A stretch of 64,000 nucleotides of DNA from a virus, in the IMG/VR virus record IMGVR_UViG_3300047994_000617, positions 32,001 to 96,000 of that record; one strand, written 5' to 3'. The position numbers were made by a program, and so were the translations under genes. Under the pieces are notes generated by a model. It was not told the DNA's origin, made no database searches, and was given only the letters and a program-made list of their open reading frames with translations. Shown piece after piece: positions 15,132-35,821 of the stretch (positions are counted from its first letter, which is position 1; each line of letters opens with the position of its first letter).

Positions 15132-15780
15132 GCCAGGGAGATGAAGGGCCTGGGATCGCTCCCAAGCTCTCCGTGGTGGCCGTGGGCCAGCTTGCCCCTC
15201 TCGATGGGGTCCGGCGCCAGCGCTTCCACGCTCCCACCAATGGGCTCGGCTGCGCGGCGGTTCATGCGGGATCGCGTCGCGCCCACTTCGCGAAGCCGCC
15301 CGTGCCCATCTCCGGCGGCGAGGTCGCGACGTGTTGAAGCCCCGACCGAAAGGCCGGCGGCCGCCTCTGTCCAGCGGTCCGGCTCCCCACGGGATCCCGG
15401 GTCCGCGCCCTCGCCGAGGTCTCCCCGTGGTCGAAACCCGTCCCCCTGTGGGACGCGCCGAGATCCCACCCCGCGACGCATTCTGATCTGCCTCCGGATC
15501 GATCTGCCTCCTGCCCTCGGAGAGAGACAGCGGTCTCTCTCCGGGGGTGATGATGAGGGGATCCCGGAGAGCAGAAGCGCACCTTTCCACACATTACTTC
15601 CAGGGAGCAAGCCAGCGTGGGTACCTCGCTGCGGTCCACCCTGCCTCGGACCCTGGCCCCCCGGGTGGGGAGGTGGGGTGGCCCCGGGGGTGGGGGGATG
15701 GGTGGCTCTTGGGTGGGGGGTGGGGTGGTCGAGGGTGGCAAATCGCTGGGTTTGGGTGGGTCCGGGGTCCGGCCGCAAAT

Positions 15781-15804
15781 TCGGCGTGACCCGATTCCAC
15801 TTAT
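15781..15804 (-). promoter_or_regulatory. Conserved 24-bp motif, copy 1 (ATAAG-N3-AATCGGGTCACGCCRA)
   Basis: One of five intergenic copies; upstream of 15843. Confidence 0.75.
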
Positions 15805-15842
15805 CAGTTTGCAGAGGCTTGTCCGGGCCCCATGCTGGCGGC

Positions 15843-17612
15843 ATGACCCAGCACCCGGAGGGCGAGCATGCACCCTACGATCCCTCTGGGGGGGCTGGCG
15901 TACAGACAGGCTATCGACCCTCGCCGCCGCATCCGCCGATCAAGTCACATCCGCTGTTTCCGCTCCCGCTCGACGAGCAGGGGGCGCCCGTCGGCTTCGA
16001 GACGGTCGAGATCTGCTACGTCTGCTTCCTCCGCAAGGGGCAGCCCAATATCTACGCACCGCAGAACTTCGAGGCTGACGACCCGCGCGTACAGGATTGG
16101 GCCTGGGTCGCCGCGACGTGGGGCGGCGGCCAGTACCAGGCCATCGCCAAGGACGCGCAGCGGAGGGTGATCCGGCACTCCGGTGAGTGGATCCTCTTCG
16201 ATGGACCGTCGAAGCCGATGGTGATGCCGCCCGACGGCCCGCCGATGGCGACTGTCGCAGCGCATCAGGCCCCGCCAGCGCCCGCTGCCACTGCCGCGCA
16301 GGTGCCTCCGCCCGCCGCCAGCCTCTCCCCGGAGGTGGCTGCACTCGTCGGCGTGGTCAAGGCGCTCGCCGAGGAGGTCCAGCACATGAAGGCCGCTCCG
16401 CCGGCGCCGCCTCCCCCGACTCCAGAGCAGACGATCCTGCTGAAGGTCGTCGAGAAGCTGGACCGGATGGACGAGAGGTCGCGCGAGCGCCCGCCGGCGC
16501 CAGCGGATTCGCTGGTGGCCGTGATGCCGATGTTCCTTCAGCAGATGAAAGACGCCAGCGACAACAACCGGCTCATCATGCAGGCGATGATGGACCGGAG
16601 GAACGAGACTCCGGTGGCGAGCGTGGTTCCACCGTCGCCGGTGGACCAGATGGCCACTCTCATCAAGATGCTCGAGCCGTGGATCAAGCCCCCGCCGCAG
16701 GCCCCCGCGCCGGCCCCGACTGCACCGGCAGCACCGGCCCCAGATCCGCTCGCTTCGACGTTCGCGGTCATGGACAAGCTCAAGGAGCACGGGATGATGC
16801 CCGGTGCCACCGGAGCAGGGAGCAACGACTTGAAGTCGGTGATCGATGGTGGCGCGGCGGTCGTGACGAGGTTCATCGACGCGAAGGCGAAGACGGACGC
16901 GGCTGCCCTCGAGCTGAAGAGGGAAGAGCTCCGGGCGAGCAGGACGGTCCTCCCGCCGCCGGCCCAGGCCGCACCTCCGCCCCAGGCCGCGCCGCCGGCC
17001 CAGGCAGCGCCGCCGGCCCAGGCCGCGCCTCCGCCCCAGGCCGCGCCGCTGGCGGTCCAGGCCGCGCCTCCGCCCCAGGCCGCGCCGCCGGTGGTCCAGG
17101 CCGCGTCTCCGCCCCAGGCCGCGCCGCCGGTGGTCCAGGCCGCGTCTCCGCCCCAGGCCGCGCCGCAGGCGGTCCAGGCCGCGTCTCCGCCCCAGGCCGC
17201 GCCGCCGGCGGTCCAGGCCGCGCCGTCGCGCGACGAGGCACCTGTGGTGGCCCCTTCACCGCCTCCGCCACCGGGCGCGCGGTCTCCCGCTCCGCCGTCG
17301 CCCGTCGCCGAAGCCGCTTCGATCCTCGAAGAGCTGCCCGCCGACACAACGAGCCTTCTCAGGGAGGCTGCGTCGTCGATCACGGTCGAGGAGCAGATGG
17401 GCGCCGCGCAGGCGTTTGCTGGGCTGAAGAGCCTTTCTCAGTCCGAGCGCGTACCGGTCTTGGAGAGCATGTTCCCCAACATGGACACCGGGATGGCCAC
17501 CGGCGTCTCCCGCATGCTCGACGACCTCCCTGTGGACATGCTCCTGCAGAGCCTCCACGGCATGAAGATGAAGATCCTCCTCAACGGGCATAACCCGCCC
17601 CCGGTGGCCTGA
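15843..17612 (+). CDS. Pro/Gln/Met-rich protein with N-terminal WGGG-x-YQAIAKD domain; putative virion or assembly protein
   Basis: First gene after motif copy 1; QAAPP/QAASPP repeats at ~16965-17222; N-terminal domain shared with 43577-45475. Confidence 0.65.
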   Translation: MTQHPEGEHAPYDPSGGAGVQTGYRPSPPHPPIKSHPLFPLPLDEQGAPVGFETVEICYVCFLRKGQPNIYAPQNFEADDPRVQDWAWVAATWGGGQYQAIAKDAQRRVIRHSGEWILFDGPSKPMVMPPDGPPMATVAAHQAPPAPAATAAQVPPPAASLSPEVAALVGVVKALAEEVQHMKAAPPAPPPPTPEQTILLKVVEKLDRMDERSRERPPAPADSLVAVMPMFLQQMKDASDNNRLIMQAMMDRRNETPVASVVPPSPVDQMATLIKMLEPWIKPPPQAPAPAPTAPAAPAPDPLASTFAVMDKLKEHGMMPGATGAGSNDLKSVIDGGAAVVTRFIDAKAKTDAAALELKREELRASRTVLPPPAQAAPPPQAAPPAQAAPPAQAAPPPQAAPLAVQAAPPPQAAPPVVQAASPPQAAPPVVQAASPPQAAPQAVQAASPPQAAPPAVQAAPSRDEAPVVAPSPPPPPGARSPAPPSPVAEAASILEELPADTTSLLREAASSITVEEQMGAAQAFAGLKSLSQSERVPVLESMFPNMDTGMATGVSRMLDDLPVDMLLQSLHGMKMKILLNGHNPPPVA

Positions 17613-17615
17613 GAC

Positions 17616-18644
17616 ATGCGCTACGCCGACCTGGGCCACGGACTCGAGCGCGCTCCCCGTGGTCCCTTCCTGTCCTTCCCGCCCGTGGACGCTCCGGTCC
17701 CCGACATCCGCCCGATCGGCGGGTTCGGACCGGTGCAACTGCACCCCTGGCGCGGCCCCTTCCCTCCCGTGCCCCTGCACGTCGCGCGCTGGCGCTGGAC
17801 CGGCTACCCCGATCTCTTCGACGCGCTCGACGCGAACGACGACGAGGCTGTCGACGAGGACGAGCTCGCCCGAGGCATCGGCCGGGGGCTCCATCTCCTG
17901 CGCGGCGAGGCGGCGGGGCCGATCGACGAAGAGGACTGGCAGGGAGACCCCGAGGCATTCCGTCTGGTCGACGCCGACGGCGACGGCCGCGTGAGCCACC
18001 GCGAGCTGGCGCAGGCCCTCGGGCCTCACGCCATCCGCCTCGCGCACGGGCATCCGGCGCACGGCCCGATGCTGCCTGCGGGATCGGAGCAGGCGTTCAC
18101 CGCCCACGCCCGCTGGGTCGTGTTCAAGAACCGCGAGGACAAGGCGCAGTACATGCGCCGCGCGGCGATCCACGACGCACAGGATCCCCAGGTCAAGTCG
18201 TGGGCGGTGGAGTTCCTCAAGCTGCCCGAGGACAAGCGCGCGACCGCGATCCTCCGCTTCGTGCAGGAGTGCGTCCGCTACGAGAGGGACCCGGCCACCT
18301 TCGATCCCGATGGCACCCGCCACGGCATCGAGCTCCTCGACAGCGCGCCCACGGGGCTCTGCCGCGGCTACGGGGACTGCGATCTCAAGGCGAGGCTGTT
18401 CGTGGCGCTCTGCCTCGCCTCGGGGATCCCCGCGCAGATCGACCCGGTGTTTCGGGGCGAGACGGGGTTTCCCCATGTCCGCGCGCGGGTGCTGCGCATC
18501 GGGGGAGAGACGTCGGACCCCAGGAACTGGGACGTCGCCGACCCCACGATCGTCAACTCCGACATCGGCAAGCTCCCGGCCAAGCCGCTCACCGCCTGGC
18601 CGGAGCACGCGGGAGAGGCACGGCGGGACACCGGGCCCGAGTGA
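17616..18644 (+). CDS. EF-hand plus transglutaminase-like (Cys-His-Asp) enzyme; candidate maturation protease
   Basis: EF loops DANDDEAVDEDE and DADGDGRVSHRE; GYGDCDLKARLFVALCLASGIP, FPHVRARV, WDVADPT. Confidence 0.85.
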   Translation: MRYADLGHGLERAPRGPFLSFPPVDAPVPDIRPIGGFGPVQLHPWRGPFPPVPLHVARWRWTGYPDLFDALDANDDEAVDEDELARGIGRGLHLLRGEAAGPIDEEDWQGDPEAFRLVDADGDGRVSHRELAQALGPHAIRLAHGHPAHGPMLPAGSEQAFTAHARWVVFKNREDKAQYMRRAAIHDAQDPQVKSWAVEFLKLPEDKRATAILRFVQECVRYERDPATFDPDGTRHGIELLDSAPTGLCRGYGDCDLKARLFVALCLASGIPAQIDPVFRGETGFPHVRARVLRIGGETSDPRNWDVADPTIVNSDIGKLPAKPLTAWPEHAGEARRDTGPE

Positions 18645-18706
18645 GCCCCGGCCGGGTCGGAGACGCGAAGCGTCGAGTCGCACGGACCACGCCGCCCGCC
18701 GAAAAA

Positions 18707-18730
18707 TCGGCGTGACCCGATTCCGCTTAT
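18707..18730 (-). promoter_or_regulatory. Conserved 24-bp motif, copy 2
   Basis: Reverse complement reads ATAAGCGGAATCGGGTCACGCCGA. Confidence 0.75.
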
Positions 18731-18769
18731 GCGTTGGTGCCTGTCCTTGGGCGGAGGAATACTCACGTC

Positions 18770-19723
18770 GTGGACTTCTCCTTCAGCCGGGGCTCGGGGG
18801 TTCCCACACCGCCGCCGGCGCTCGGTTCTGACACGAACCCGGCGACGCTGACCGGCGCCGCGGCGGCGGCCTACGTCACCAACGACAACTGCGTCACCTT
18901 CCAGCTCGTCGAGGCCGGACCGCAACCGCTGCACCTCGCCGTCGCGGCCGCCTTCGTGGGGACCGGCACGCCGGGGCTGGTGACGCTTAGCCTGTACGTC
19001 TGGGACCCGACCACGGGGACCTGGTTTGCCCTCCCGACCCCCGCGACGCTCGACGTTGGCCAGGAGGTTACGGTCGACGTCCCGGTGGTGATGAGCACGA
19101 CCCTGGCCTGGACGCTGGCGATCGTCGCGTCGGTGGCCTCCCCGGGGGCCGGGATCTACACGTTCGAGGCGGGGCTCAGCGAGAGCGCCGCCGCCGGGAC
19201 CGGCGGCGGCGGGCCGACGACCGTCGTCGCGAACCAGGGCCTGCCAACGGCGGACACGACCAGCGCCGCGTGGCCCGAAATCGCGGCCAACTCGACGTAC
19301 GGTGCATGCTGGGGGGGCACGGCGCCGTTCGGCGCGCCGACCGCTCCGCCGCTCGCCCCTAACTTCGCGCCGGGCGGCTCGGCGGTGGAAGCCGGCGCGG
19401 TGCGGGTGGTCGCCGGCGGCGTCGTGCGCTGCCTCACGGGCGGGCACGTCGCCGCGAACCCGCCGCCCAATGGCGCGCAGGGCGTGACGAGCACGGACGG
19501 CGCCGGCAACGAATGGCTCGGGCTCGGCCCGCTCAAGCAGGGCATCGTCCTGCGAAACCTCGACGCGACCAACGTGCTCATGTGGGACTGGTTCCCCGAC
19601 CAGGCCGCGGGGTTCCCCATCGGCCCCGGCGCCGCGATGGAGATCCCGGTCTCGGACCCCTCGCTGATCTACGTCTGGGGTGCGACGGCCGCCGTCGGGT
19701 GGGCCGTCGCGGGGGCGTCGTGA
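18770..19723 (+). CDS. Beta-rich Thr/Ala/Gly protein, putative virion vertex or spike component
   Basis: Alternating hydrophobic strand pattern and very low charge; GTG start chosen from the upstream GGAGGA. Confidence 0.55.
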   Translation: MDFSFSRGSGVPTPPPALGSDTNPATLTGAAAAAYVTNDNCVTFQLVEAGPQPLHLAVAAAFVGTGTPGLVTLSLYVWDPTTGTWFALPTPATLDVGQEVTVDVPVVMSTTLAWTLAIVASVASPGAGIYTFEAGLSESAAAGTGGGGPTTVVANQGLPTADTTSAAWPEIAANSTYGACWGGTAPFGAPTAPPLAPNFAPGGSAVEAGAVRVVAGGVVRCLTGGHVAANPPPNGAQGVTSTDGAGNEWLGLGPLKQGIVLRNLDATNVLMWDWFPDQAAGFPIGPGAAMEIPVSDPSLIYVWGATAAVGWAVAGAS

Positions 19724-20121
19724 GGCGCGGACTGGCCTACGTGGCCGCGCCCGGATCATCGGGGCCGACGTCGTTCACGCGCTCAGCCGTCGTGACCACG
19801 ACGGGGAACGGCGCGACCCCCGCTGACATCGCCGTCGCGCCCGGCGCGATCGGTGTGGCCTCGGCGACGTTCGTTCCGGATCCGACCTCGATCGTTCCGT
19901 ACGCGATCCAGGTGACCTTCACGTCGCCGATGCCGTACGCGCTGTACGTCGTGGAAATCCAGTTGGACGGGCAGACCAGCGCCTACGAAATCGGTGCCGG
20001 TTTCGTGGCGCCGGGGACGATGACCGAGAACGGCTTCGTATTTCGGGTGAGCTTCGGAGGGTTTGTCGACCCGAGCACCTACGCGCTGAACATCAGCCTG
20101 ATCTGCATCTCAGGCCCGTGA
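19720..20121 (+). CDS. Small beta-rich putative virion protein
   Basis: GTGA overlap; YAIQVTFTSPMPYALYVV...TENGFVFRV strand pattern. Confidence 0.55.
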   Translation: MRRGLAYVAAPGSSGPTSFTRSAVVTTTGNGATPADIAVAPGAIGVASATFVPDPTSIVPYAIQVTFTSPMPYALYVVEIQLDGQTSAYEIGAGFVAPGTMTENGFVFRVSFGGFVDPSTYALNISLICISGP

Positions 20122-20242
20122 TGGCCGCGCCGCGATTGGTCAGCCGCAACGGCGCCCTCTCCCCGCGACCCGTGACGCATCGGCGCGTCGTGGCAGCGCG
20201 CTCCCGCTGCTCGACGCACGACGCTCCGCCGACCCCGTCGGC

Positions 20243-20278
20243 GTCGCGACCCAATAAGTCGATTTATTGGGTCGCGAC
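20243..20278. repeat. 36-bp near-perfect palindrome (15-bp arms GTCGCGACCCAATAA/TTATTGGGTCGCGAC, spacer GTCGAT)
   Basis: Read directly from the sequence. Confidence 0.9.
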
Positions 20279-20284
20279 CCCGTA

Positions 20285-20308
20285 ATAAGCCAAATCGGGT
20301 CACGCCAA
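20285..20308 (+). promoter_or_regulatory. Conserved 24-bp motif, copy 3
   Basis: ATAAGCCAAATCGGGTCACGCCAA upstream of the giant ORF. Confidence 0.75.
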
Positions 20309-20371
20309 ACACCCTATCAGGGGTTGTCTCGTACGGTGTGCTCAGCGCACGCTGACCACATGGAGACTGAG

Positions 20372-23300
20372 ATGCCGGCGCTGCTGGTGGATGGCGACAC
20401 TCGGGCCGCCGACACGCGTCCACTCGACTTGTCGGGCGGCGAGACCGGGGCGGACATCCTGCCCGTCGGCGGCAAGCCCGCGCGCGCGCCGGAGCCCCTC
20501 CACCTGGACAACCTCGCTGGGCAGCCGGCCCCCCTCCAGCTTTCGCCGGAGCCCGCTCCGAGCGCGCCGAAGCCCGCGCCGCGCGCGCCGTCGCCGCCTC
20601 TCCAGCTCAGCGGCGAGCCCGCTCCCAGCCCGCCGCGGTCTCCGGGGCCCCGTCCCCTCCACCTCGGCGCGTCGCCGGCTTCTCCCGTCAACCCGGTCAC
20701 CCCCAGCGCGCCGTCGGCGCGACCGAGGGGGCCGGGCGAGCCGCGGTCGCTGGTCCCCGGCCTCGGCGGGATCCACGCGGGTCACATGGGCGCGGCCACC
20801 GGCCTCGTCCACGGCGCGGTCTCCCAGGTCGGCCGAACGCACCCCCACAACGTCCACATGGGCCAGCTCGCCCACGGCGCGCACGCCGATCCGGTGCGGT
20901 ACGGCGGCGACTTCCTGATCGCGAGCCACGGACCGAAGCGCTTCCACGAGCTCCACGGGGAAGGGCGGCTCCCGTCGCAGGCGTGGGAGCGCCACCGCGA
21001 TATCGCGCGCCATGCGCGCCGCGTCCACGAGGAGCTGGGCGGCGAGCTCGCGCGCCGCCACGGACGCCGGCCCCTCGGGGAGCGCACCCTGATCGGGATC
21101 GCCGCCATGAACGGGGCGCACGACGACATGGCGCGTTACCTCGACGCCCAGCGGGTCCACCCGCACCACCCGGCGCACGAGAGCTGGCACGTCCTGATGC
21201 GCGGCTTTCACCCGCGCGAGATCGCTCGCGTGGGCTCGGAGATCGTGCCCGGGGGGGCCATCGAGCCGGCGGTCGACGCCTACCGCGCGATCTGGGTGGA
21301 GCGCGCTTCAAAGGCACGCGCGGCGCGCCGCGCGTTGCTCGCGCGCCTCCGCGCCCTCTGGGCCTCAGGCGATCCCTCGCTCGTGCCGGCCTTCGAGGGC
21401 GTCGTCCGGGGCATGAGCCCGGAGCAGACGGCGCGGCTCCGTACGACGATCGAGCAGGACGGGGACATCGCGCGCGTGCTCGAGGAGATCGAGGCCGCCA
21501 ATGCCGAGGCGCGCATGGCCTCACGCGAGGCCGCCATGCGGCGCTGGCTCGCCGAGTACCACGCCAACCGCGACCCGGAGGCCCAGACCCCCCTGGACGA
21601 GCTGGCGATGACGCCCCCCTCAAGCGCGCTCATCGGCGCGGCCGAGGGCGACGAGGACGACGACGAGGACGAGGGGGACACGGGCGGTCGCGGCGGAGGC
21701 GGCGGTCACGGCGGAGGCAGCGGACGCGGCGGAGGCCGCCGTCCGAGCGCATGGGGAGGTGCGTGGGGTGGCGGGGGCACACCTGGCTGGTTCTTCCTGC
21801 CCGAGGACCCCGACGAGGCTCTCGACGACCCCGATCCCGAGGCGGGCGCTCCGATGGGCGCCCCGGCCGTGGCCCCGCTGCGGGCGCCGTCTCCCGGCGC
21901 GCACACCGCCGACGGCGTGGTCCCCCTCCACGAGCTCGTGCAGGGCTTCGGTCGCGCCGGCCGCGAGCAGCTCCGCCAAGCCTGGGACCGCGGCAACCCC
22001 TACGACGCCTACCGCGCGATCCTCGATCAGCGGGGCGAGGCGACGCGCGCCGCGCGCGAGGCCGCGTTCGTGGCGCGTCTGGAGCGCCTCGGCTGCATGG
22101 CCGACGGGCTCTGCGAGATCCCCCGCGAACGGCTCACCGCATTCAGCGACCTCACCGAGATGTTCAGCCCGGAGCAGTGGGCGCGGTTCGCGGCCGCGCT
22201 CACCCAGGGCGAGGACAAGCCGCTCGACCTCTTCCGCCAGATCGAGGCGGAGAACCTCGACGCCGCGAAGGCCACCCGGCCGCTCGCCTTCATGCGCTAC
22301 TTCGGATCCTGGGGGCAGCACGCCGCCCGCTGGAACCCGCTGGAGTGGGCCATGCTGGCCCCCCGGATCGGGGTCGACGCGGCGGACGCGGCGGACGCCG
22401 CTGGGATCTTCGACGACCTGAGCGGCGCCCTGGGCGGCGCGCTCAGCGGAGCGGGCGGTGGCGGCGGCGGCAACCCGCTGTCCGGGCTGTCCGGGCTCCT
22501 GGGCGGCGGTGGCGGGGGCGGCGGGGGCGGCGGGGGTGGTCCGGACTTCGGGCAGATCGCCGGCCTCGTCACCAAGGTCGGCGGCGCGATCGCTGGTGCA
22601 GCAGGGGGGCACCCGGGTGCGGGTCTCCCGCCCGACCTGGCCGGCTTCGCCGCCAAGGCCGTCGGAGCACTCACGGGGCGGGCGGCAGCGCCTCCCGTGG
22701 GGCCTCCCATCGGCGCGCCCGCGGCCCAACCGATCCAGGCCCCGACCCGGCCGGTCGTGCATCCAGCGCCCCCGCCGCCGCCCACGCACGAAGGACCGCC
22801 GCGGCACTTCTTCAAGGTGATCGAGGCGTGGGGCCCGCGCGGCAAGACGCAGCTCGCCCACGAGTGGGTCAAGGGGCTCGTCGGGATCGGCCTCGGCGAG
22901 ATGGCGCAGGCGCAGGGGCCCGCCCTCCTGGATCGGATCGCGGTGCGGGAGCTCCCCGCCGCCAACACCGATCCGGCCCAGGGGTGGTGGTCGCAGCTCA
23001 TCGCGCACCAGGGGATCGACGGGAACGAGGCGGAGGTCGTGCTCGCCGCGATCAACGCCGGCCCGGACGCGATCCCGCAGGCCGTCGCGGCCTACCGCCG
23101 CGTGCTCGAGGGGCCCGTACGCCACCAGGCCCTGGAGCGCGAACACCTCTTCGCCGAGGTGCTCGCCGCGGCGCAGAAGGCCGCCGGCAAGCCCGGCTTC
23201 GACCCGAAGCGGCTCCCCGGCCTCGGCAACCCGTTCGAGGCGTTCTCCCACCGCGCCGGCCGCTGGGGCGCCGTCCACCAGGCGCTCCTCAACGGTTCGG

Positions 23301-26300
23301 GCGCCGCGGAGGCATTCCGCGGGAGCGAGGACCAGCGCGTCGCCGACTACCTCCGCCTGGCCGGTGAGCGGATGGAGCACTTCGCCCGCGAGCTCTGGGC
23401 ACGTCGCTCCAAGGCGGCCCCCGCGCCGTCGCCGGCGGCGCCGTCGGGCCCCGAGGCGGGCGACCCGTTCGAGGCGGGCGCCCTGTGGGGCAATCGCTTC
23501 GGGCGCGAGGGCATCCGCCGCGAGGGCATCGTTCGCGAGGGCTTCGGGCGCGAGGGCATCCGCCGCGAGGGCGTCCTTCGCGAGGGCTTCGGGCGGGAAG
23601 GCATCCGCCGCGAGGGCATCCTCCGGGAGGGCTTCGGGCGCGAGGGCATCCGCCGCGAGGGCGCGCTCCGCGGTCCCCCGATGGGTCCCGGCTGGGGCGG
23701 CCGGCAGTGGTCCGCCGGTCACCCGGGGGCGCACAGCTTCGTCGGGTACGACGGCAAGACCCGCATGGGGGAGCACTTCGTCGATTCGCACGGCTATCAG
23801 GCGATGCGGACGGCGGACGGCCACGTCTGGCTGTGGCAGACGGACGGGTCGGGGTGGAAGGACAATGGCCCGGGAGGGAAAAGCCCCGGGTACAGCGAGA
23901 GAGGCCTCCAGGGCTTCTTCGCGCACGTTCACGCGGCCGAGACCCACGGGCCGGAGGAGGAGGCGGGCTTCGCTGTCCGTCGTCCGCGTCCCTTCTTCCA
24001 CCTCGGATTCAACCGGCCGTGGAGCCGGCTCGAGATGGCCCGCATGCTGGAGGCGGTCCCACAACTCCGGGCGCATCCCGATGGTGTGCTCCAGGAGATC
24101 GCGGGGCGCCGGGCGCGTCCGCGCGACCTGCGAGGCGTGGACGCGACACGCCTCGAATACCACATCCTGCCTCGCGGCGAGTCCTTCAACGACATCGCCG
24201 CGAAGCTGGTCGGGGACCGCCGCCGCGGGGCCGAGATCGTCTTCGCCAACCCCGGGCTCGGCGAGGGCCAACGGACCCTCCGGATCCCTCCGGGATGGCT
24301 CGGCCGGATCCCCCTCCGGATCCCCGCGCACCTCGTTCACGAAGCCGCCGGCCTCGATGCCGGGGAAGCCGGCGAAACCGGCGAGGCCGGGTCGGTCCGA
24401 CGTTCTCGGCGCCGCAACGGCGGTGGGAGAGGGCGGGGAGGGCGGGGCGGCCACGGGGGCGGAGGAGGCGGCTACGGCGGCTTCCAGGGCCCCCAGGGGC
24501 CCCCGGGACCCCCGGGCGACGCCGAGCCGGACGACGACGACGCCAGCGGCTTCGTCGACGACCTCCGGGCCCTCGTGCTCGGGGGCGGCGCCCCCGCGCC
24601 CATGATCTCCCCCCAGCCGGAGCCGCCCATCGACGAGACCCCGGTCGATCTCCTGGAGACGCCCCGCGGCCTCGAGACGCCGGCCCCCGGCCACGGCAGC
24701 GCGGTGGACGGTCCGCGGAGCCCGCTGACCCGCACCACCTACAAGGTCGAGCGGTCCGGCATGGGGATGTTCGCCATCGCCCAGAAGTTCGGAGCCGTGC
24801 CGCCGAAACGCGCCCACTGGTTCGGCGAGCTCCGCGACGCGAACCCGCACAAGCACATCGCCGTCGACAGCGCTGGCAAGCAGATCGGCTGGCAGAGCCT
24901 CGGCAAGGGCGAGGAGATCAACATCCCCGACGCCTGGATCGCGAAGGGCGAGGCCTCCGGCGTCGACGAGGAGGCCGGACAGCCCCTCGCGCTGACCGAC
25001 GAGAACCTCGTGGAGGCGGGGCCCCCCATCTTCGCCAAGCTCGGCGACATCGCCGGCGCGACCAAGATCCTGAGGGCCATCCAGGGGCGCCTCGGGAACG
25101 AGGGGCTCGACACGTTTCAGCGAAGGATCTTCGACGCCATCACGGGGTACTCGGACAAGGACCCGGCGATCGTCGAGGTCTATGCGCTCCTCGGCCGTGA
25201 CCGCGGCGTGGCGGCGGCGCTGGACGGACTCCGGAGCGGGCGGCGCGACAGCAAGGACATCTCCCGCTTCGGCCGGAGGGTGCTCGCTGCGCTCACGGGC
25301 GAGCTCGAAGTGGCCCCTCGCCCCCGCAACTACGACACGCAGGGCCTCGACGAGGCGGGCGACACGGGCGCCATCGACGAGGACGCCCTCCGCCAGAACA
25401 TCACCCAGCGCACGTACGTGGTCCAGCGCGGCGACGGGATGCAGGCGATCGCGAAAAAGCTGGGCGCCTTCCCCGCGCGGCCCAAGTGGTTCGCGGAGCT
25501 CCGGGACGCCAACCCCCACAAGGAGATGGCCACCCAGGGCGGCAAGCAGATCGGCTGGAAGCGCCTCTACGCCGGCAAGGTCATCAACATCCCCGACGTC
25601 TGGCCGGAGTCGCCCGCGCTGGTCGCGCCGCCGAGCGGACCGACCGTCGCTCCCCCGCACCCCGGGATCGAGCACGCGCCCGGAGGCCCGGGAGGGGCAA
25701 CCCCCTCCGTGACGGCCCCGCCGGGGACGATCCCCGCGGCCGCCACGATCGACAAGGGGACCATCCATCGGGTGCAGGCGTACCTCGTGCTGTTCCGCAC
25801 GGGTCACCCGGACGCGATCGATCCGAAAGACTTCGGCGTCGGGATGCCGGTCTCCCAGGACGTGATCGGCGTTCCCTCGGCGCGCACGACGAGGGCCATC
25901 GGGAGCTTCCAGCGCTGGAGCAACCGGACCGCGGGCACGCACCTCCGCGAGGACGGTCAGCTCGACCCGGCCACGATCGAGGCGCTCGATCACTACGCGC
26001 TCACGGCCCTCGACCTGCCCCCGCGGCCGGCCCTGGCGCCGGTCCTCGGCGGGGAGATGCCCCACCCGGCCGACCCCTACGGGCCGCTGCTCGACGGCGC
26101 GGCCCACGACGTGACCCAGGTCGCCGTGGACATCGCCCGCAAGGCCGGCGAGCTCCCGCGCCCGCAGACGCCGCCGCCCGGCGCCGCCCAAATCCCCGAG
26201 GACCCGTACCGAGACCTCCCCAAGCTGCGCGGCGAGGTGATCCGCGTGCTCGACGGCGGCCCCCCGGCCCAGCCGCCCGGTCCCGCTCCGCAGCCGCCGG

Positions 26301-26647
26301 CGCCGGCGCCCCCGCCCGCGGGCCCGCCGCCGCGTCCGGGTCCCCCGCCGCGCCGGCACCGTCCGCCGCGTGACGCGGGGCCCGACATGCGCGCCTCCTA
26401 CGACGCGCCGATCCCGTCGCTCGCGCCCGCCCCTCGGGCGCCGGACGGGCTCCCGCCCGCCGCGCCCCCGGACGCGTCGCGCCCGCCGCCGAAGAAGAAG
26501 GCGGAGGGCGACGTCGGCCCGATGATCGGCGGGACGCTGCTGGGCGGCCTGCTCGGCGGCCCGATCGGAGCGGTCATGGGCTTCATCGGCGGCGCGATCG
26601 CGTCGGAGGACCCGAAGCCGACCCCGCCGCCCGCGAGAAGGGCCTGA
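20372..26647 (+). CDS. ~2090-aa multidomain protein (helical repeats, Arg/Gly-rich segments, three LysM-like domains, PG-binding domain, C-terminal Gly-zipper TM); putative virion polyprotein
   Basis: LysM-like YHILPRGESFNDIAAK, YKVERSGMGMFAIAQK, YVVQRGDGMQAIAKK..ANP..INIP; TTRAIGSFQR..LREDGQLDPATIEAL; alternative start 20360. Confidence 0.75.
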   Translation: MPALLVDGDTRAADTRPLDLSGGETGADILPVGGKPARAPEPLHLDNLAGQPAPLQLSPEPAPSAPKPAPRAPSPPLQLSGEPAPSPPRSPGPRPLHLGASPASPVNPVTPSAPSARPRGPGEPRSLVPGLGGIHAGHMGAATGLVHGAVSQVGRTHPHNVHMGQLAHGAHADPVRYGGDFLIASHGPKRFHELHGEGRLPSQAWERHRDIARHARRVHEELGGELARRHGRRPLGERTLIGIAAMNGAHDDMARYLDAQRVHPHHPAHESWHVLMRGFHPREIARVGSEIVPGGAIEPAVDAYRAIWVERASKARAARRALLARLRALWASGDPSLVPAFEGVVRGMSPEQTARLRTTIEQDGDIARVLEEIEAANAEARMASREAAMRRWLAEYHANRDPEAQTPLDELAMTPPSSALIGAAEGDEDDDEDEGDTGGRGGGGGHGGGSGRGGGRRPSAWGGAWGGGGTPGWFFLPEDPDEALDDPDPEAGAPMGAPAVAPLRAPSPGAHTADGVVPLHELVQGFGRAGREQLRQAWDRGNPYDAYRAILDQRGEATRAAREAAFVARLERLGCMADGLCEIPRERLTAFSDLTEMFSPEQWARFAAALTQGEDKPLDLFRQIEAENLDAAKATRPLAFMRYFGSWGQHAARWNPLEWAMLAPRIGVDAADAADAAGIFDDLSGALGGALSGAGGGGGGNPLSGLSGLLGGGGGGGGGGGGGPDFGQIAGLVTKVGGAIAGAAGGHPGAGLPPDLAGFAAKAVGALTGRAAAPPVGPPIGAPAAQPIQAPTRPVVHPAPPPPPTHEGPPRHFFKVIEAWGPRGKTQLAHEWVKGLVGIGLGEMAQAQGPALLDRIAVRELPAANTDPAQGWWSQLIAHQGIDGNEAEVVLAAINAGPDAIPQAVAAYRRVLEGPVRHQALEREHLFAEVLAAAQKAAGKPGFDPKRLPGLGNPFEAFSHRAGRWGAVHQALLNGSGAAEAFRGSEDQRVADYLRLAGERMEHFARELWARRSKAAPAPSPAAPSGPEAGDPFEAGALWGNRFGREGIRREGIVREGFGREGIRREGVLREGFGREGIRREGILREGFGREGIRREGALRGPPMGPGWGGRQWSAGHPGAHSFVGYDGKTRMGEHFVDSHGYQAMRTADGHVWLWQTDGSGWKDNGPGGKSPGYSERGLQGFFAHVHAAETHGPEEEAGFAVRRPRPFFHLGFNRPWSRLEMARMLEAVPQLRAHPDGVLQEIAGRRARPRDLRGVDATRLEYHILPRGESFNDIAAKLVGDRRRGAEIVFANPGLGEGQRTLRIPPGWLGRIPLRIPAHLVHEAAGLDAGEAGETGEAGSVRRSRRRNGGGRGRGGRGGHGGGGGGYGGFQGPQGPPGPPGDAEPDDDDASGFVDDLRALVLGGGAPAPMISPQPEPPIDETPVDLLETPRGLETPAPGHGSAVDGPRSPLTRTTYKVERSGMGMFAIAQKFGAVPPKRAHWFGELRDANPHKHIAVDSAGKQIGWQSLGKGEEINIPDAWIAKGEASGVDEEAGQPLALTDENLVEAGPPIFAKLGDIAGATKILRAIQGRLGNEGLDTFQRRIFDAITGYSDKDPAIVEVYALLGRDRGVAAALDGLRSGRRDSKDISRFGRRVLAALTGELEVAPRPRNYDTQGLDEAGDTGAIDEDALRQNITQRTYVVQRGDGMQAIAKKLGAFPARPKWFAELRDANPHKEMATQGGKQIGWKRLYAGKVINIPDVWPESPALVAPPSGPTVAPPHPGIEHAPGGPGGATPSVTAPPGTIPAAATIDKGTIHRVQAYLVLFRTGHPDAIDPKDFGVGMPVSQDVIGVPSARTTRAIGSFQRWSNRTAGTHLREDGQLDPATIEALDHYALTALDLPPRPALAPVLGGEMPHPADPYGPLLDGAAHDVTQVAVDIARKAGELPRPQTPPPGAAQIPEDPYRDLPKLRGEVIRVLDGGPPAQPPGPAPQPPAPAPPPAGPPPRPGPPPRRHRPPRDAGPDMRASYDAPIPSLAPAPRAPDGLPPAAPPDASRPPPKKKAEGDVGPMIGGTLLGGLLGGPIGAVMGFIGGAIASEDPKPTPPPARRA
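23498..23662 (+). repeat. 15-bp unit repeat encoding (xxREG)n
   Basis: FGREGIRREGIVREGFGREGIRREGVLREG... Confidence 0.9.
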
Positions 26648-26649
26648 CC

Positions 26650-27558
26650 GTGGCAACGGTGCCCCAGGCGCTCGCCTCGCCGACGTCGATCACGTGGAAA
26701 CACGTCGATCCGGATCTCGGCGCCCAGGTCAAGGCGGCGCTCGCGCTGCGCTCGAGGCCGGGCGCTGACCCACGCGAGGCGTTCCGGAAGATGAGCAGCT
26801 CAGAGCGCGTGCGCTTCCTGCGCGCCCTCTCGATCGGGACGCTGCTCGCCATCGAGGACAGCCGCGTGGGCGGGATCCCTCCCCTCGGGGAGATGGACAC
26901 CGCGCTCACGCTGGGGCGCAAGCCCGTCCGAGCGGACCAGTTCGCGACGCCCGGTCACCTCTACGCCGCGTCGATGCTGGCGCGGGCGCCGATGATGATC
27001 GGCGATCCGGGCAAGCACATGGTCTACAGCGCGGAGACGCGCGAGGGTGACCCCGCTGCCCTCGACACCAAGGGCCCCTCGGCGGAGACCGGAGGAGGCA
27101 CGGACACGGGCCTCGCCCCGATCTTGGTCGGGGTGGCCATCGTGGCGACCACGGGCGTGCTCGGCATCGCCATCTGCTACTGCGGCCAGCTCGCCGCCGA
27201 GGTCGTCGATCGCAAGCTGGCGGACGACGCGCTGACCGCGCGCATGGTGATGACCCAGGCATCGGCCTCGGATCTGGTCATGGCGCACACGGCCCGCGAG
27301 CAGGCCGCGGGCGGCGCCCCGATCCCGTACGACGCGGGGGAGCTGAAGGTGCTCGACATGCTCGGCGGCGCGTACGTCGCGCTGGCGAAGAGAGACAGGA
27401 GCCCGATCCCCAACCCCTTCGCCGGTGCGGTGAAGAGCGCGGGGCGGGCCGTAGAGAACGCTGCGAGCGGCGTGGGCTTCGGCCTGGTCGTCGCGCTGGC
27501 AGCCGCGGGGGCCCTCTACGCCGCATCGCGCGCGGAGGCCGCTCCAGCAGAGCACTGA
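26650..27558 (+). CDS. Membrane protein with two hydrophobic segments; putative virion membrane protein
   Basis: LAPILVGVAIVATTGVLGIAICYC and VGFGLVVALAAAGALYAA. Confidence 0.7.
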   Translation: MATVPQALASPTSITWKHVDPDLGAQVKAALALRSRPGADPREAFRKMSSSERVRFLRALSIGTLLAIEDSRVGGIPPLGEMDTALTLGRKPVRADQFATPGHLYAASMLARAPMMIGDPGKHMVYSAETREGDPAALDTKGPSAETGGGTDTGLAPILVGVAIVATTGVLGIAICYCGQLAAEVVDRKLADDALTARMVMTQASASDLVMAHTAREQAAGGAPIPYDAGELKVLDMLGGAYVALAKRDRSPIPNPFAGAVKSAGRAVENAASGVGFGLVVALAAAGALYAASRAEAAPAEH

Positions 27559-27618
27559 TTTTCGGCCGCGCCGAGCGGAAGCAGGCGCGCGCCCCAGGAC
27601 AACGAAGGAGACGGTGAG

Positions 27619-28209
27619 ATGACGACTCAAGCAGCGGGAGCGGGTGTGATCACGGTGGACGAGAAGGAGTACGCGTCCGGCGTCCGAGCGAAGGCGAAGC
27701 TCGAGGAGCTGAAGCTCGCCGGGAACACCGAAGAGGGTATGGGCCTCATCAAGGGCGGGAAGTACGGCGCCGGCGTGCTCAAGATCGCGGGCGGCTGGGG
27801 CCCCCTGATCACGGCGGCGCTCGCGGGCGGAGCGATCTTCGCCCTGTCCGAGATGAAGTCCGTCAAGGGCATCCAGTTCTTCAAGGACCACTGGTACGCG
27901 AGGGGCATCGCCGGCCTCTTGCTCGCCGCGTTCTTGTGGAAGAAGGGCTATCAAGTGTGGGCCGCGGCCCTCGCCTCCACCGCGCTCGGCCTGATGTACG
28001 CCGACCACGAGAACCGCCAGGGCGCGCCCCCGAAGGAGGCCAGCGGCCCGGAGGACCCGGACGCCGGGTACTGGATCGGCGGCGCGTGGTACCCGCGGCG
28101 CCACTGGGACGACCCGCGGCTCGTCGAGCGCTACCGCCTGGAGGAGCTGCTCCCCGCGCGGCGCGCGGCCGAGGCGCGGGCGGAGCGCCTCTACGAGGTC
28201 GGGGTCTAG
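27619..28209 (+). CDS. Membrane protein with about three TM segments
   Basis: RBS AAGGAG; three hydrophobic stretches. Confidence 0.75.
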   Translation: MTTQAAGAGVITVDEKEYASGVRAKAKLEELKLAGNTEEGMGLIKGGKYGAGVLKIAGGWGPLITAALAGGAIFALSEMKSVKGIQFFKDHWYARGIAGLLLAAFLWKKGYQVWAAALASTALGLMYADHENRQGAPPKEASGPEDPDAGYWIGGAWYPRRHWDDPRLVERYRLEELLPARRAAEARAERLYEVGV

Positions 28210-28231
28210 GCGCGGCGGCGAGGCCGTGAAC

Positions 28232-28268
28232 GCGCAGCCGCGGACCCGAGGGGTCCGCGGGGCTGCGC
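28232..28268 (+). other. GC stem-loop upstream of the capsid candidate
   Basis: gcgcagcc-gcggaccc-gag-gggtccgc-gg-ggctgcgc; no U tract. Confidence 0.65.
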
Positions 28269-28304
28269 TCCACAAGGATGAGACGAGGACGGGAGAGCAA
28301 GGAC

Positions 28305-29627
28305 ATGGACGCACAGCAGGTTCTCAGTGAAGTGAAGGGTAAGGTCTCCGCCGCCGCGGCGCGGGAGGCCGCCGGGATGGAGGCTGGCGAAGCGGCGGGT
28401 GACACCGCCGGCGTGGACACGGCCCTGGCCGAGGCCGGCGCGGCCGCGGAGGCGCCCGCCGTGATCGTGACGGCGCCGTCGATCGAAGCCGGCATCGAGC
28501 ACCTCAAGCGCGAGGGCGCCCTCAACGTGGAGACCCTGGTGGGCCTCACGCACCACGCGGCGCGGGTCCAGGGCAAACACAGCCATCGGCATGGCTTCCG
28601 CCAGGGCCTGAACCACCACCGCAGGGTCCGGGGAGCGTTCATGCGGCCCCACGACTTCCCGGTGCCGTACGGCCGGAGCGAGGACATGAAGGGGTTCCGG
28701 TACGACGTCATCCAGCGCTTCGCCGAGGGGAACGGCGGCAAGGTGGTGTCGCAGGCGGGCGAATACTACGGGACCTTCCAGACCGCCTTCACCGTTTCGT
28801 CCTTCGGCGGATCGAGCCCGACGAGCGGTCTCTTCTCGATCGTGGTCCCGCCCACGCCGGCGAGCAGCACCTACTACGTCAACCCCCCCGCCGACACCTG
28901 CTTCGACTTCAGCATCGGGGAGTCGGACCCGAACTGGTTCGGGGGGCCACACACGATGACCCTCGCGGACACGAACCTGCAATACCCCGGCCAGGGCCTC
29001 TACCAGAAGGAGGTCTTCATCATCGAGGCGTGGGAGGCCCGCTTCAAGGGGCTCCGGATTCAGTTCGACACCACGAAGATCCCGGGCTTCTCGGCCCTCC
29101 CGCTGCCCATCCAGGCCATGCTGCAGGGGCAGGCATGCATCTGGGATCGCGAGAACCTGGTGCTGCCCTCGGGCATCTTCAACAAGCTCACCGACGTCTG
29201 CGAGCTCGCGCAGGCGCTGGCGGAGGTCGCCAGCATCCAGCTCGAGTGGGTCAACCTCGGGCCCGGGTCGAACAACGTCGTCGCCACGAAGCCTCTCGGG
29301 CGCATGTGCGGCAACCCCTCGACCTACCGCCGGAGCGTCGTGGAAACGAGCGGCGGCGGTCTCGCGCTCGACCTCCCCCGCGGCTACATCTGGTGCCAGG
29401 ACGAGACGTTCCAGCCCAACGAGGACAGCGGCGGCAATGGCTTGCTCTACGGGCAGCTCCTCCTGAACGACAACGTGGACTGGCCGTTCCCGGCGCTCGC
29501 GTCGGTCTACGGGTCGGGCCCCATCGTGCCGACGGGGATCGCCCTGGAGTGGCAGTTCAAGGTCTACGGCACCGCGCTCCTGCCCTCGAAGGCGGACCGG
29601 CGCCTGAACGTCCAGCGCCGAAGCTAG
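28305..29627 (+). CDS. Candidate major capsid protein (beta-rich, jelly-roll-like) with acidic N-terminal propeptide and His/Arg-rich arm
   Basis: ~300-aa aromatic, strand-rich domain (TLADTNLQYPGQG..EVFIIEAW, LEWQFKVYG); flanked by hairpins; follows the membrane genes. Fold is inferred. Confidence 0.5.
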   Translation: MDAQQVLSEVKGKVSAAAAREAAGMEAGEAAGDTAGVDTALAEAGAAAEAPAVIVTAPSIEAGIEHLKREGALNVETLVGLTHHAARVQGKHSHRHGFRQGLNHHRRVRGAFMRPHDFPVPYGRSEDMKGFRYDVIQRFAEGNGGKVVSQAGEYYGTFQTAFTVSSFGGSSPTSGLFSIVVPPTPASSTYYVNPPADTCFDFSIGESDPNWFGGPHTMTLADTNLQYPGQGLYQKEVFIIEAWEARFKGLRIQFDTTKIPGFSALPLPIQAMLQGQACIWDRENLVLPSGIFNKLTDVCELAQALAEVASIQLEWVNLGPGSNNVVATKPLGRMCGNPSTYRRSVVETSGGGLALDLPRGYIWCQDETFQPNEDSGGNGLLYGQLLLNDNVDWPFPALASVYGSGPIVPTGIALEWQFKVYGTALLPSKADRRLNVQRRS

Positions 29628-29703: not shown

Positions 29704-30288
29704 GTGCCCGTCCCGCTCCTCCCCGCCAACGTCAACGCCCAGAAGATCGATCCTCGGGAGCGCGATCCGAGGAAGAACGTGCTGGAGATCGCTCTCCCCT
29801 CGCCTGGCATCCGGCGGGCGTACATCGTCCTCCAGACCGGCACGATCACGGACGAGGAGTGGAATCGGATCTGGTGGACGCTTCAGGCCGACGTGATGCT
29901 TGCGGAGACCTTCGACGGCCTCGACCACATCTCCCTCCTGCCAGGCCTGCTGGAGATCGCGCCGCTCACGACCACCGTCGCTCACGTGGCCACGGCATAC
30001 TGGGTGGAGGGTTTGCCCGCGACGAGTATCCGCGTGCGCGTGTCGAGCTACGGAGAGCAGCCCTCGGGCTATGCGCAGGTCTACGGCTGGGGCGACACGA
30101 CCCCGCACGACAAGTCGGGGCTCTGGCCGGCGCCCTATGGGCACGTCCGTCAGCCGCGACGCATCGTCGCGCCACTGCCCGATCCCGAGCAGACCCTCGG
30201 CGAGACGTCGCTCGTCGATTTCCTCATGTTCACCGACCGGATCGGCGCGCCGCCGCGCGAACCGCAGGTGAAGCTGCACAAACGTTAA
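29704..30288 (+). CDS. Hypothetical beta-rich protein in the structural operon
   Basis: ORF with typical codon pattern; RBS GAGGAG. Confidence 0.6.
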   Translation: MPVPLLPANVNAQKIDPRERDPRKNVLEIALPSPGIRRAYIVLQTGTITDEEWNRIWWTLQADVMLAETFDGLDHISLLPGLLEIAPLTTTVAHVATAYWVEGLPATSIRVRVSSYGEQPSGYAQVYGWGDTTPHDKSGLWPAPYGHVRQPRRIVAPLPDPEQTLGETSLVDFLMFTDRIGAPPREPQVKLHKR

Positions 30289-30313: not shown

Positions 30314-30757
30314 ATGTCCGCTGTTGCCCCCAGCCTCATCCTGCCCGTACAAGTCATCAGCCCCGTCCCGTGGACGGGGAACATGCAAGCCGTCGTCACC
30401 GTCAACTGCCTCGACGGCGATACCGGCCAGACGGCCTCCCGCGCGAGCGCCTGGATCCAAGTGCCACCGGGCATGATCCCCCAGCTCTCGCTCGGCCTCA
30501 GCGCGGAGACCGGTACCTTCGGGTGCTACCTCGAGACCTGCAACCAGGTCGTCGCCGGCGCCGCCGTCGACACCCCCCGCCCCATCGGCTACTTCAAGCA
30601 GACCCCCGGGGCCGCGCTGCCGACCTCCACGCCGATGTCGGGAGGCCAGCCCACCGACAACTGGGTCCGCGTCCAGAGTCAGGTCGGCAACGGCGGCAGC
30701 GTCGCATGGCTGGTGAGCGGTCGCTTCATCGCCGCGTCGTACGCGCAGCAGCTCTGA
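30314..30757 (+). CDS. Small all-beta putative minor capsid or vertex protein
   Basis: 147 aa, strand-like pattern, RBS AAGGA. Confidence 0.5.
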   Translation: MSAVAPSLILPVQVISPVPWTGNMQAVVTVNCLDGDTGQTASRASAWIQVPPGMIPQLSLGLSAETGTFGCYLETCNQVVAGAAVDTPRPIGYFKQTPGAALPTSTPMSGGQPTDNWVRVQSQVGNGGSVAWLVSGRFIAASYAQQL

Positions 30758-35798: not shown

Positions 35799-35821
35799 TC
35801 GCAGAGAAAAAGGAGACCCCC

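Follow-up and report, generated by a model that had tools for sequence, protein, structure and literature searches.

The stretch analysed here, which we call the window, comprises 64,000 nucleotides of virus DNA: bases 32001-96000 of the 128,625-bp record IMGVR_UViG_3300047994_000617, with 72% G+C. The record is labelled a provirus in IMG/VR, and its completeness is estimated by CheckV at 81%. The genes of the window, taken as open reading frames (ORFs) supported by G+C content at third codon positions (GC3), form a single long array on the + strand. In a module at 17-31 kb, an enzyme with EF-hands and a transglutaminase core is encoded upstream of a giant protein, two membrane proteins and a capsid candidate, and these four proteins share a short acidic motif, written as the regular expression [DE][AT][AS]?G. 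An earlier note on this DNA had proposed that the enzyme cuts virion precursors at the motif. As far as sequence comparison can tell, the motif exists, is under selection and lies where one would look for a protease site; that the enzyme cuts it is a more tentative proposal. The genes concerned are:

17616-18644, + strand: EF-hand/Transglut_core enzyme, 342 amino acids (Pfam)
20267-26647, + strand: giant ORF
26650-27558, + strand: membrane protein, 302 amino acids
27619-28209, + strand: membrane protein, 196 amino acids
28278-29627, + strand: capsid candidate, 449 amino acids

The giant protein has 2126 residues if translated from the TTG at 20267 and 2092 if translated from the ATG at 20369. 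Conserved globular blocks are set between acidic, Gly/Arg-rich, Pro-rich and repeat linkers, with a transmembrane (TM) segment at the C-terminus, a layout that makes the protein a candidate polyprotein substrate. The 302-residue membrane protein has a soluble N-terminal part, then motifs and a TM helix, and a second hydrophobic segment at the C-terminus. The 196-residue one has three hydrophobic segments, an acidic linker with motifs and an aromatic/Arg-rich tail. The capsid candidate, for which the public call starts at Met10 and gives 440 residues, consists of an acidic, motif-rich leader, a His/Arg-rich helical arm and a beta-rich domain; it holds seven motif sites, with 1.0 expected. The giant ORF contains exactly 19. 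The sites given in the earlier note are present, at its coordinates in the giant and as it quoted them in the two membrane proteins:

20441, 21677, 21839, 22394, 23453, 23471, 23960, 24341, 24356 and 24365, + strand: motif sites 1-10 of the giant ORF
24374, 24383, 24539, 24950, 24971, 25013, 25352, 25361 and 26372, + strand: motif sites 11-19 of the giant ORF
27085-27111, + strand: two motif sites of the 302-residue membrane protein (residues 146-148 and 152-154), immediately ahead of the TM helix
28036-28068, + strand: two motif sites of the 196-residue membrane protein (residues 140-143 and 148-150), in the acidic linker
about 28365-28493, + strand: six leader motif sites of the capsid candidate (residues 21-64 from the public Met)

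Such a motif might be nothing but a by-product of low-complexity sequence rich in Ala, Gly, Glu and Asp in a genome of this G+C content. These residues are indeed abundant, several of the counts come from tandem arrays, and three homologous giant fragments (see below) are not significantly enriched. The enrichment over composition-matched background that the earlier note had anticipated is nevertheless found against global shuffles, against local shuffles and against the other genes of the record. Global shuffling of the giant protein gives 7.2±2.6 motifs and shuffling within 20-residue blocks gives 5.9±2.3; none of 1000 shuffles of either kind reaches 19, and the reversed motif occurs four times. 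Eleven genes tested outside the module have 0-3 sites each (p >= 0.22).

The comparison was extended to nine full-length giants, 35-47% identical, seven of them from a protein collection. Every one of them exceeds its local shuffles (p 0.042 or better), and so do the nine together, with 156 motifs where local shuffling gives 56.6±7.3 and, in 500 trials, never more than 80. The order of the residues matters as well: the forward tripeptides are 2.1- to 2.7-fold enriched in the nine giants, and tripeptides of the same residues in another order are not. The counts, observed and expected, are:

EAG: 55 observed, 20.3 expected
DAG: 46 observed, 18.2 expected
ETG: 13 observed, 6.2 expected
DTG: 13 observed, 5.5 expected
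GAE: 10 observed, 20.3 expected
GAD: 15 observed, 18.2 expected
AEG: 13 observed, 20.3 expected
ADG: 14 observed, 18.2 expected

One permutation, AGD, is also high (53 observed, 18.2 expected), because of tandem arrays of the DAGDAG type that occur mainly in one homologue. A DNA-level repeat as the source of the motif was rejected: the 31 motif instances in the four substrate genes are encoded by 23 distinct DNA words, and the motif is thus a property of the protein.

A record-wide scan covered 62 GC3-supported ORFs. The module accounts for 40 motif sites where 12.7 are expected, and the remaining ORFs for 92 where 63.0 are expected. These 92 include 14 from an antisense artefact and 30 from a second giant ORF (described below); what is left, 48 sites, compares with 53.0 expected, so that the record's other genes are at expectation. 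The artefact is a 180-codon ORF on the - strand (61298-61840) opposite the repeat-rich gene 60285-62009; its 14 motifs stem from a repeat read on the wrong strand, and they inflate naive record-wide counts. With these results, and with sites that keep their position while the surrounding linkers do not, we regard the by-product explanation as highly improbable.

Positional conservation was followed in homologues from metagenomes, from two myxobacterial metagenome-assembled genomes (MAGs) and from the protein collection. The order giant, 302-residue membrane protein, 196-residue membrane protein, capsid candidate, 29704 gene, 30314 gene is repeated in the loci that span those genes. This family of loci is rare, with a match in 2 of 401 sampled genomes of the class. 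The metagenome scan gave 12 loci, most of them shorter than 5 kb and informative for the small genes only, and neither the capsid candidate nor the enzyme had a relative in the viral contig collection.

In all four protein families the motif keeps its place in homologous loci, another point on which the earlier note is borne out. In a MAFFT alignment of the nine giants the motif positions fall into 69 clusters, of which 12 are common to at least four of the nine and five to at least seven. The reversed motif, as a control in the same proteins, gives 37 clusters, none of them in more than three. Shared sites lie at the ends of variable acidic linkers, immediately before conserved blocks: one precedes the block that opens with a Pro-rich 'APxPGAY' segment (8/9 giants), another a Gly-rich amphipathic segment (8/9) and a third a LysM-like 'RTYxV' module (7/9). 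The earlier note had called this last module LysM. In the window copy the Pfam matches to LysM (E 0.15) and PG_binding_1 (E 0.056) are both below threshold; the homologue P0021 does carry precomputed LysM and SH3_3 domains, and P0018 and P0022 carry SH3_3. The ESM Atlas gave no usable match for the first conserved block of the giant.

Six of seven aligned copies of the 302-residue membrane protein have the motif immediately ahead of the TM helix; the copy in locus L001 is without the Gly. For the 196-residue protein, all seven locus copies have it at the junction between the acidic linker and the aromatic/Arg-rich tail. An exhaustive HMMER search of 1.84 billion cluster representatives found 25 proteins of this family: 21 have the motif at the aligned site, three elsewhere in the protein (in two cases only a few residues away) and one has none. 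Here the motif forms part of a longer conserved linker pattern. One metagenome protein of the family, P0120, begins with 58 residues identical to the acidic leader of the capsid homologue P0004, which could reflect either a shared removable leader or an assembly chimera; we do not use it as evidence.

For the capsid candidate we compared 15 homologues (35-46% identity). Their first 100 residues contain 63 motifs (7.1 expected) and the remaining ~340 residues contain 16 (8.2 expected), 13 of these in one conserved loop. This loop, of the 'E-T-S-G-G' type at residues ~340-350 of the 440-residue form, is present in 13 of the 15 homologues and is modelled with low confidence; it could be an internal site or merely a structural loop. 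In two folded, beta-rich proteins of the module, encoded at 30314 and 18734, an occasional motif is found in 1-2 of eight and 1-2 of three copies, respectively, and is unconserved, as expected of chance matches inside folded domains.

In a logo built from 261 instances, Asp or Glu occupies -2 and -3, further acidic residues are seen at -4 and -5, and -1 is Ala in 184, Thr in 44 and Ser in 33. The residue that follows the Gly is variable, and Pro is favoured at +2. On all of this sequence evidence the motif is very probably functional, and we lean, with less assurance, towards a site of proteolytic processing as its function.

The motif could instead be conserved without being cut, as an element for docking or targeting, as a hinge, or as an acidic site that binds metal, in which case the enzyme would be unrelated to it. 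The conservation tests do bear on selection for the motif and not on cleavage; the longer linker pattern in the 196-residue family would suit a binding element equally well, and acid on both sides of the motif would suit an ion-binding or electrostatic role. What argues the other way is its distribution, since it recurs at the ends of linkers between unrelated modules in four families, with up to 30 copies per giant and several per leader. Protease sites of polyproteins and propeptides recur in this way, as described in the accessible portion of PMC10052503, and a single docking site would not. The variable residue after Gly also resembles the sites of proteases that read the non-prime side. 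We consider an uncut motif unlikely.

The enzyme, encoded 1.6 kb upstream of the giant gene, is organized as follows:

residues ~1-49 of the enzyme: disordered N-terminus
residues ~67-135 of the enzyme: EF-hand pair
residues ~155-321 of the enzyme: transglutaminase-core/papain-like domain
Cys255, His287 and Asp309 of the enzyme: catalytic triad

Its EF-hand matches in Pfam (EF-hand_6 31.1, EF-hand_7 30.3, EF-hand_1 28.9 and EF-hand_5 27.9 bits) are above cut-offs, as is the match of residues 204-275 to Transglut_core (PF01841, 26.3 bits with a cut-off of 23). A profile search of the PDB with the enzyme returned EF-hand proteins only. The intact Cys-His-Asp triad recognized in the earlier note is invariant in all seven aligned copies; among 94 relatives in the protein collection Cys255 is kept in 93, His287 in 90 and Asp309 in 90. 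Transglut_core is precomputed in many of these relatives, and EF-hand domains in most of the full-length ones. The pair of EF-hands suggests that the enzyme may be controlled by Ca2+.

An AlphaFold2 (AF2) model of the enzyme has a mean predicted local distance difference test score (pLDDT) of 68, exceeding 80 across the EF-hands and in the greater part of the core. The best VIA matches are putative cysteine proteases: 3isr with Z 10.6 (root-mean-square deviation 3.4, 122 residues aligned) and 3kd4 with Z 9.9. They are followed by TglA (9crn, Z 9.3), LapG of Legionella and Pseudomonas (7.5-7.9), TgpA (7.7), PeiP (7.4), PNGase (7.2), the transglutaminases FXIII and TG3 (~7) and PeiW (6.7). All 50 matches listed (Z >= 6.5) are transglutaminase-like proteins, PNGase, Rad4, LapG, CPR protease or axonemal proteins. 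From the model, then, the fold is certainly transglutaminase-like; the type of reaction is uncertain.

The enzyme could for example be a true transglutaminase that cross-links particle proteins in a Ca2+-dependent manner, with the motif playing no part. FXIII and TG3, Ca2+-activated enzymes of animals, are among its fold neighbours, and the protein encoded directly upstream at 15141-17612 has ~14 Gln-centred repeats that might serve as acyl donors. These are of the Gln-Ala-Ala-Pro-Pro type and lie in the C-terminal half; the first ~230 codons of the ORF look non-coding, and a start near 15843 is likely. The ORFs directly upstream of the enzyme gene in four related loci are, however, Pro/Ala-rich without Gln repeats, and a tblastn search with the 15141-17612 protein had no hit at E <= 0.001. 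Because the repeats are not kept, a conserved cross-linking role is weakened, and we dropped the Gln-repeat protein as a transglutaminase substrate. Since the best fold matches are putative proteases and the motif holds neither Gln nor Lys, cross-linking seems to us quite improbable.

Both MAGs with related elements carry copies of the enzyme (five and three matches, 48-67% identity). Two of the five in the MAG G001 could be placed, one ~3 kb from the giant gene of locus L002 on the opposite strand and the other 13.6 kb upstream of the capsid gene of L004. In L006 and L009, the two loci that span the enzyme gene, it is directly followed by the homologue of the 18734 gene. The arrangement in L002/L006 (G001:C18, ~934.7-960.4 kb), where this pair lies ~3 kb from the giant gene and on the strand opposite to it, suggests an inversion relative to the window. 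A complex prediction that paired residues 50-330 of the enzyme with the capsid candidate's N-terminal 80 residues scored 0.00 twice, without controls, and speaks neither for nor against binding.

Domain scans found no peptidase-like domain in the structural module besides the enzyme. Elsewhere in the record, beyond the window, is the second giant ORF (L032, 3323 codons; record bases 105575-115546, or 73575-83546 on the window scale). It holds 30 motif sites, where 9.2 are expected, in the same contexts, one of them immediately ahead of a TM helix. It also contains a full serpin domain (E 1.2e-104), which is unusual inside a possible viral polyprotein, and a stretch that resembles Peptidase_C39_2 over profile positions 81-143 only (E 0.0013).

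The motif could accordingly be a processing site for another protease, whether of the host, an unrecognised viral one or the C39-like part of L032, while the enzyme has another task, for instance the cleavage of cross-links in peptidoglycan during entry or exit. The cut made by C39 peptidases follows motifs of the Gly-Gly type. PeiP and PeiW, among the fold neighbours of the enzyme, are isopeptidases of archaeal proviruses that act on pseudomurein, and the module is rich in wall-related domains (the SGNH and SpoIID hydrolase at 30770-33889, the LysM- and PG_binding-like parts of the giant). Set against this, the C39_2 match is below the Pfam cut-off (19.8 bits, cut-off 24), and no such stretch was found in the two genomes with related motif-bearing elements, where the only matches to the family are on a different contig or at least ~300 kb away from the elements. 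The transglutaminase-core gene is the only peptidase-fold gene found in every genome with a related element, and its placed copies lie 3 kb and 13.6 kb from element genes. By inspection of its sequence, moreover, the enzyme is without an evident signal peptide or wall-binding domain. We think it unlikely that another protease uses the sites and that the enzyme has a separate task.

Among other protease families known from virus maturation, Peptidase_S78 had no match in the record, itself an estimated 81% complete (a control matched 4/14 genomes), and Peptidase_C48 had none at E <= 0.1 in the 128.6-kb record (control 1/14), although the adenain model itself was not searched. S77 also had no match in the record, but its control matched nowhere, and this result is hence uninformative.

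ASFV (African swine fever virus) processes polyproteins. The accessible text of PMC1198262 describes vaccinia I7L as cutting core precursors and a membrane protein after the AG of Ala-Gly-Xaa, and the adenovirus and ASFV proteases as using Gly-Gly-Xaa. The earlier note had compared the present system with these enzymes, and for cleavage after Gly this is an apt working analogy: as far as those excerpts go, adenain, pS273R and I7L are virus-encoded cysteine proteases that act on several virion precursors at a short motif ending in Gly. The likeness does not extend to the clan; they are Ulp1/SUMO-protease-like, and the candidate here, with no Peptidase_C48 match, is outside that clan and has a transglutaminase fold with EF-hands. 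It would also work in a bacterial host and on a motif with an acidic residue inside.

In fold and cofactor, LapG (BTLCP) is by analogy the closer counterpart. LapG binds Ca2+ within its own catalytic domain, and it has a papain/transglutaminase-like fold with a Cys-His-Asp triad. According to the portion of PMC6890996 available, it is a Ca2+-dependent transglutaminase-like protease that cuts the di-Ala in PAAG or AAAG of giant adhesins encoded nearby. A short small-residue motif that ends in Gly and a giant modular substrate encoded nearby would thus be common to both systems, to judge from that partial text, as would dependence on calcium, which is shown for LapG and here only suggested by the two EF-hands. 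LapG differs in being a periplasmic regulator of one adhesin, which has one site, whereas the structural module of the present provirus has its dozens of sites spread over several proteins. An acidic residue is required in the present motif, in which a single Ala or Thr is frequent, and calcium would be sensed by a fused EF-hand pair. By sequence the enzyme is not a member of the LapG-type family: at E <= 0.01 a Pfam scan gave EF-hand families and Transglut_core only. By these analogies, the system would pair substrates organized as in the viral cases with a LapG-like fold and cofactor.

Prohead proteases (T4 gp21, SPN3US gp245, phiKZ gp175) offer a further comparison. They are serine proteases with the herpesvirus-assemblin fold. 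In the sections of PMC10052503 available, SPN3US gp245 cuts many head proteins at AXE, and long propeptides hold several motifs and are cut repeatedly. One protease acting on many proteins at a three-residue motif, with large internal or ejection proteins among the substrates, is a likeness within the limits of those sections. These are proteases of tailed phages with HK97-fold capsids, however, and the record here has no S78 match and none to the HK97 Phage_capsid family in its 128.6 kb; the gp245 cut follows Glu, whereas the conserved Gly here comes two or three residues after the acid. A literature search, in which subscription journals were thinly covered, found no description of the protein family or of a transglutaminase-fold virus maturation protease.

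Taken together, the reading we favour is that the motif is a selected recognition site marking where precursors of a myxobacterial provirus are cut during particle maturation, with the enzyme at 17616-18644 as the most likely cutter; as a whole we give it slightly less than an even chance. The narrower claim that the EF-hand/transglutaminase-core enzyme is a protease acting on the motif stands just short of even too. The substrates would be the giant (2092-2126 residues), the two membrane proteins and the jelly-roll capsid candidate with its ~60-residue leader, and probably the second giant as well. Precursors would be made with acidic linkers or leaders that mask basic, amphipathic or membrane-active segments. 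The enzyme would bind the acidic small-residue motif and cut at or beside the Gly; the scissile bond might lie after AG, as for vaccinia I7L, or inside AAG, as for LapG. With multiple motifs per leader, the leader may be chopped up, as are the propeptides of giant phages. Ca2+ on the EF-hands may confine activity to a Ca2+-rich compartment or moment. The roles that the earlier note gave the products (DNA condensing, membrane action, wall binding) we infer, as it did. If the sites are cut, the system is probably virus maturation by proteolysis of an undescribed type.

Several points weigh against this reading. The case for cleavage rests wholly on sequence. The link between enzyme and motif is one of co-occurrence, with no related element without the enzyme for contrast, and the second peptidase-like domain of the record, in L032, could compete for the role. 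The transglutaminase fold also covers cross-linkers (FXIII, TG3), isopeptidases (PeiP, PeiW), PNGase and non-enzymes (Rad4), and so the fold alone does not say 'protease'. Tandem (E/D-A/T-G)n arrays make up the run at 24341-24391 and the one in the capsid leader; because many motifs sit in such arrays the counts are not independent, and with arrays collapsed the window giant has ~12 site clusters. Across all motifs of the nine giants, the 12 residues after a motif are nearly as acidic as the 12 before (-1.29 vs -1.70; about -0.15 around random positions). The change of sequence character that the earlier note saw behind the motif is thus found at the last motif of a cluster and not at every motif. 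The giant fragments in L003 (5 motifs, 3.2 expected, p 0.24) and L004 (3 and 3, with 2.8 and 1.8 expected) are not significantly enriched. Finally, one MAG has the module in a third copy that has diverged, L030 (G001:C8:33000-52000), in which the leader of the otherwise intact capsid homologue is without the motif. The giant frame there looks broken (frameshifted), and we therefore treat L030, probably a decaying provirus, as uninformative. Its enzyme homologue lies in a 727-codon frame and aligns from query residue 164 on, with the EF-hand region unaligned.

Two more such points concern the particle. Its production by the locus is a prediction from the gene content, and the assignment of the 449-residue protein as a capsid protein, made from a model, is weak. 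The AF2 model has a mean pLDDT of 69. Its VIA matches include the major capsid protein of SPV1 (Z 5.9, root-mean-square deviation 5.2, 152 residues aligned), HCIV-1 (Z 4.4), SH1 (Z 4.2) and VP17 of P23-77 (Z 4.1), and also the non-capsid proteins nucleoplasmin (Z 5.6) and PHM (Z 5.3). A wide VIA search was dominated by the N-terminal helices and is uninformative for the beta domain. Foldseek found no match at E <= 0.001 in the PDB, where the top rows were FHV, polyomavirus VP1 and PCV2; in BFVD it found 34 at that threshold, mostly capsids of CRESS viruses, circoviruses or parvoviruses, with template modelling scores of 0.08-0.18.

The combination of an FtsK-type ATPase, membrane proteins and a capsid candidate fits a tailless, membrane-containing virus. 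SPV1, SH1, HCIV-1 and P23-77, which are tailless viruses with an internal membrane, likewise have an FtsK/HerA-type ATPase near the structural genes and several small membrane proteins, and they gave the best capsid-candidate matches, Z 5.9-4.1 being in every case below the level of a trustworthy fold match. To our knowledge, though no search was aimed at one, no maturation protease is known for viruses of the SPV1, Sphaerolipoviridae or Simuloviridae groups. Genomes of the Simuloviridae are 16-19 kb in the text available from PMC12642351, whereas the record here has at least 128.6 kb. The fullest version of our proposal, an undescribed temperate lineage of Polyangia-type myxobacterial viruses of at least 128 kb with jelly-roll, membrane-containing particles, in which a Ca2+-gated transglutaminase-fold cysteine protease matures giants, membrane proteins and the capsid leader, must be called doubtful. 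In that version calcium would set the timing, holding cutting back until the particle is out of the low-Ca2+ cytoplasm, and the system would parallel the maturation of adenoviruses, poxviruses and ASFV in a bacterial setting, having arisen from a different protease fold.

Provided that the motifs are cleaved, a transglutaminase-fold, EF-hand-fused protease would here serve the maturation of a prokaryotic virus for the first time, and virion components of a bacterial double-stranded DNA element would be expressed in the manner of a polyprotein. The system would have converged with eukaryotic large DNA viruses on 'small residue-Gly' sites. A simple rule based on the motif would then also predict what mature products arise from proteins without a known family, and a Ca2+-switchable protease with a short motif would be a possible tool. 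Whether or not cleavage is refuted, a motif of three to four residues at the ends of linkers in four unrelated families needs explaining.

The other genes of the array in this part of the window are:

4624-6036, + strand: helicase
6949-9351, + strand: 5'-3' exonuclease
13110-15131, + strand: FtsK/SpoIIIE-type ATPase
15141-17612, + strand: Pro/Gln-repeat protein
18734-19723, + strand: beta-rich protein
29704-30288, + strand: small beta-rich protein
30314-30757, + strand: small beta-rich protein
30770-33889, + strand: SGNH and SpoIID hydrolase
33954-35798, + strand: DUF6884 protein
35717-37393, + strand: protein with a weak C1q-like match

Pfam and PHROGs gave no match for the genes starting at 15141, 18734, 26650, 27619, 28278, 29704 and 30314. 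The rest of the record encodes two C5 methylases, DnaB, PP2C, NUDIX and a PAPS-reductase-like gene. A 3429-codon ORF (L033; record bases 94010-104299, in the window from 62016-63998 onward) fuses an Eco57I-like N6 DNA methylase to an SNF2/helicase part; it is without motif enrichment (6 sites, 7.8 expected) and is possibly a giant protein for anti-restriction or of a defence type. A large serine recombinase with Resolvase and Recombinase domains, encoded close to the record's end (L034:11898-12719, record bases 127444-128265), is likely the integrase and would mark one end of the provirus.

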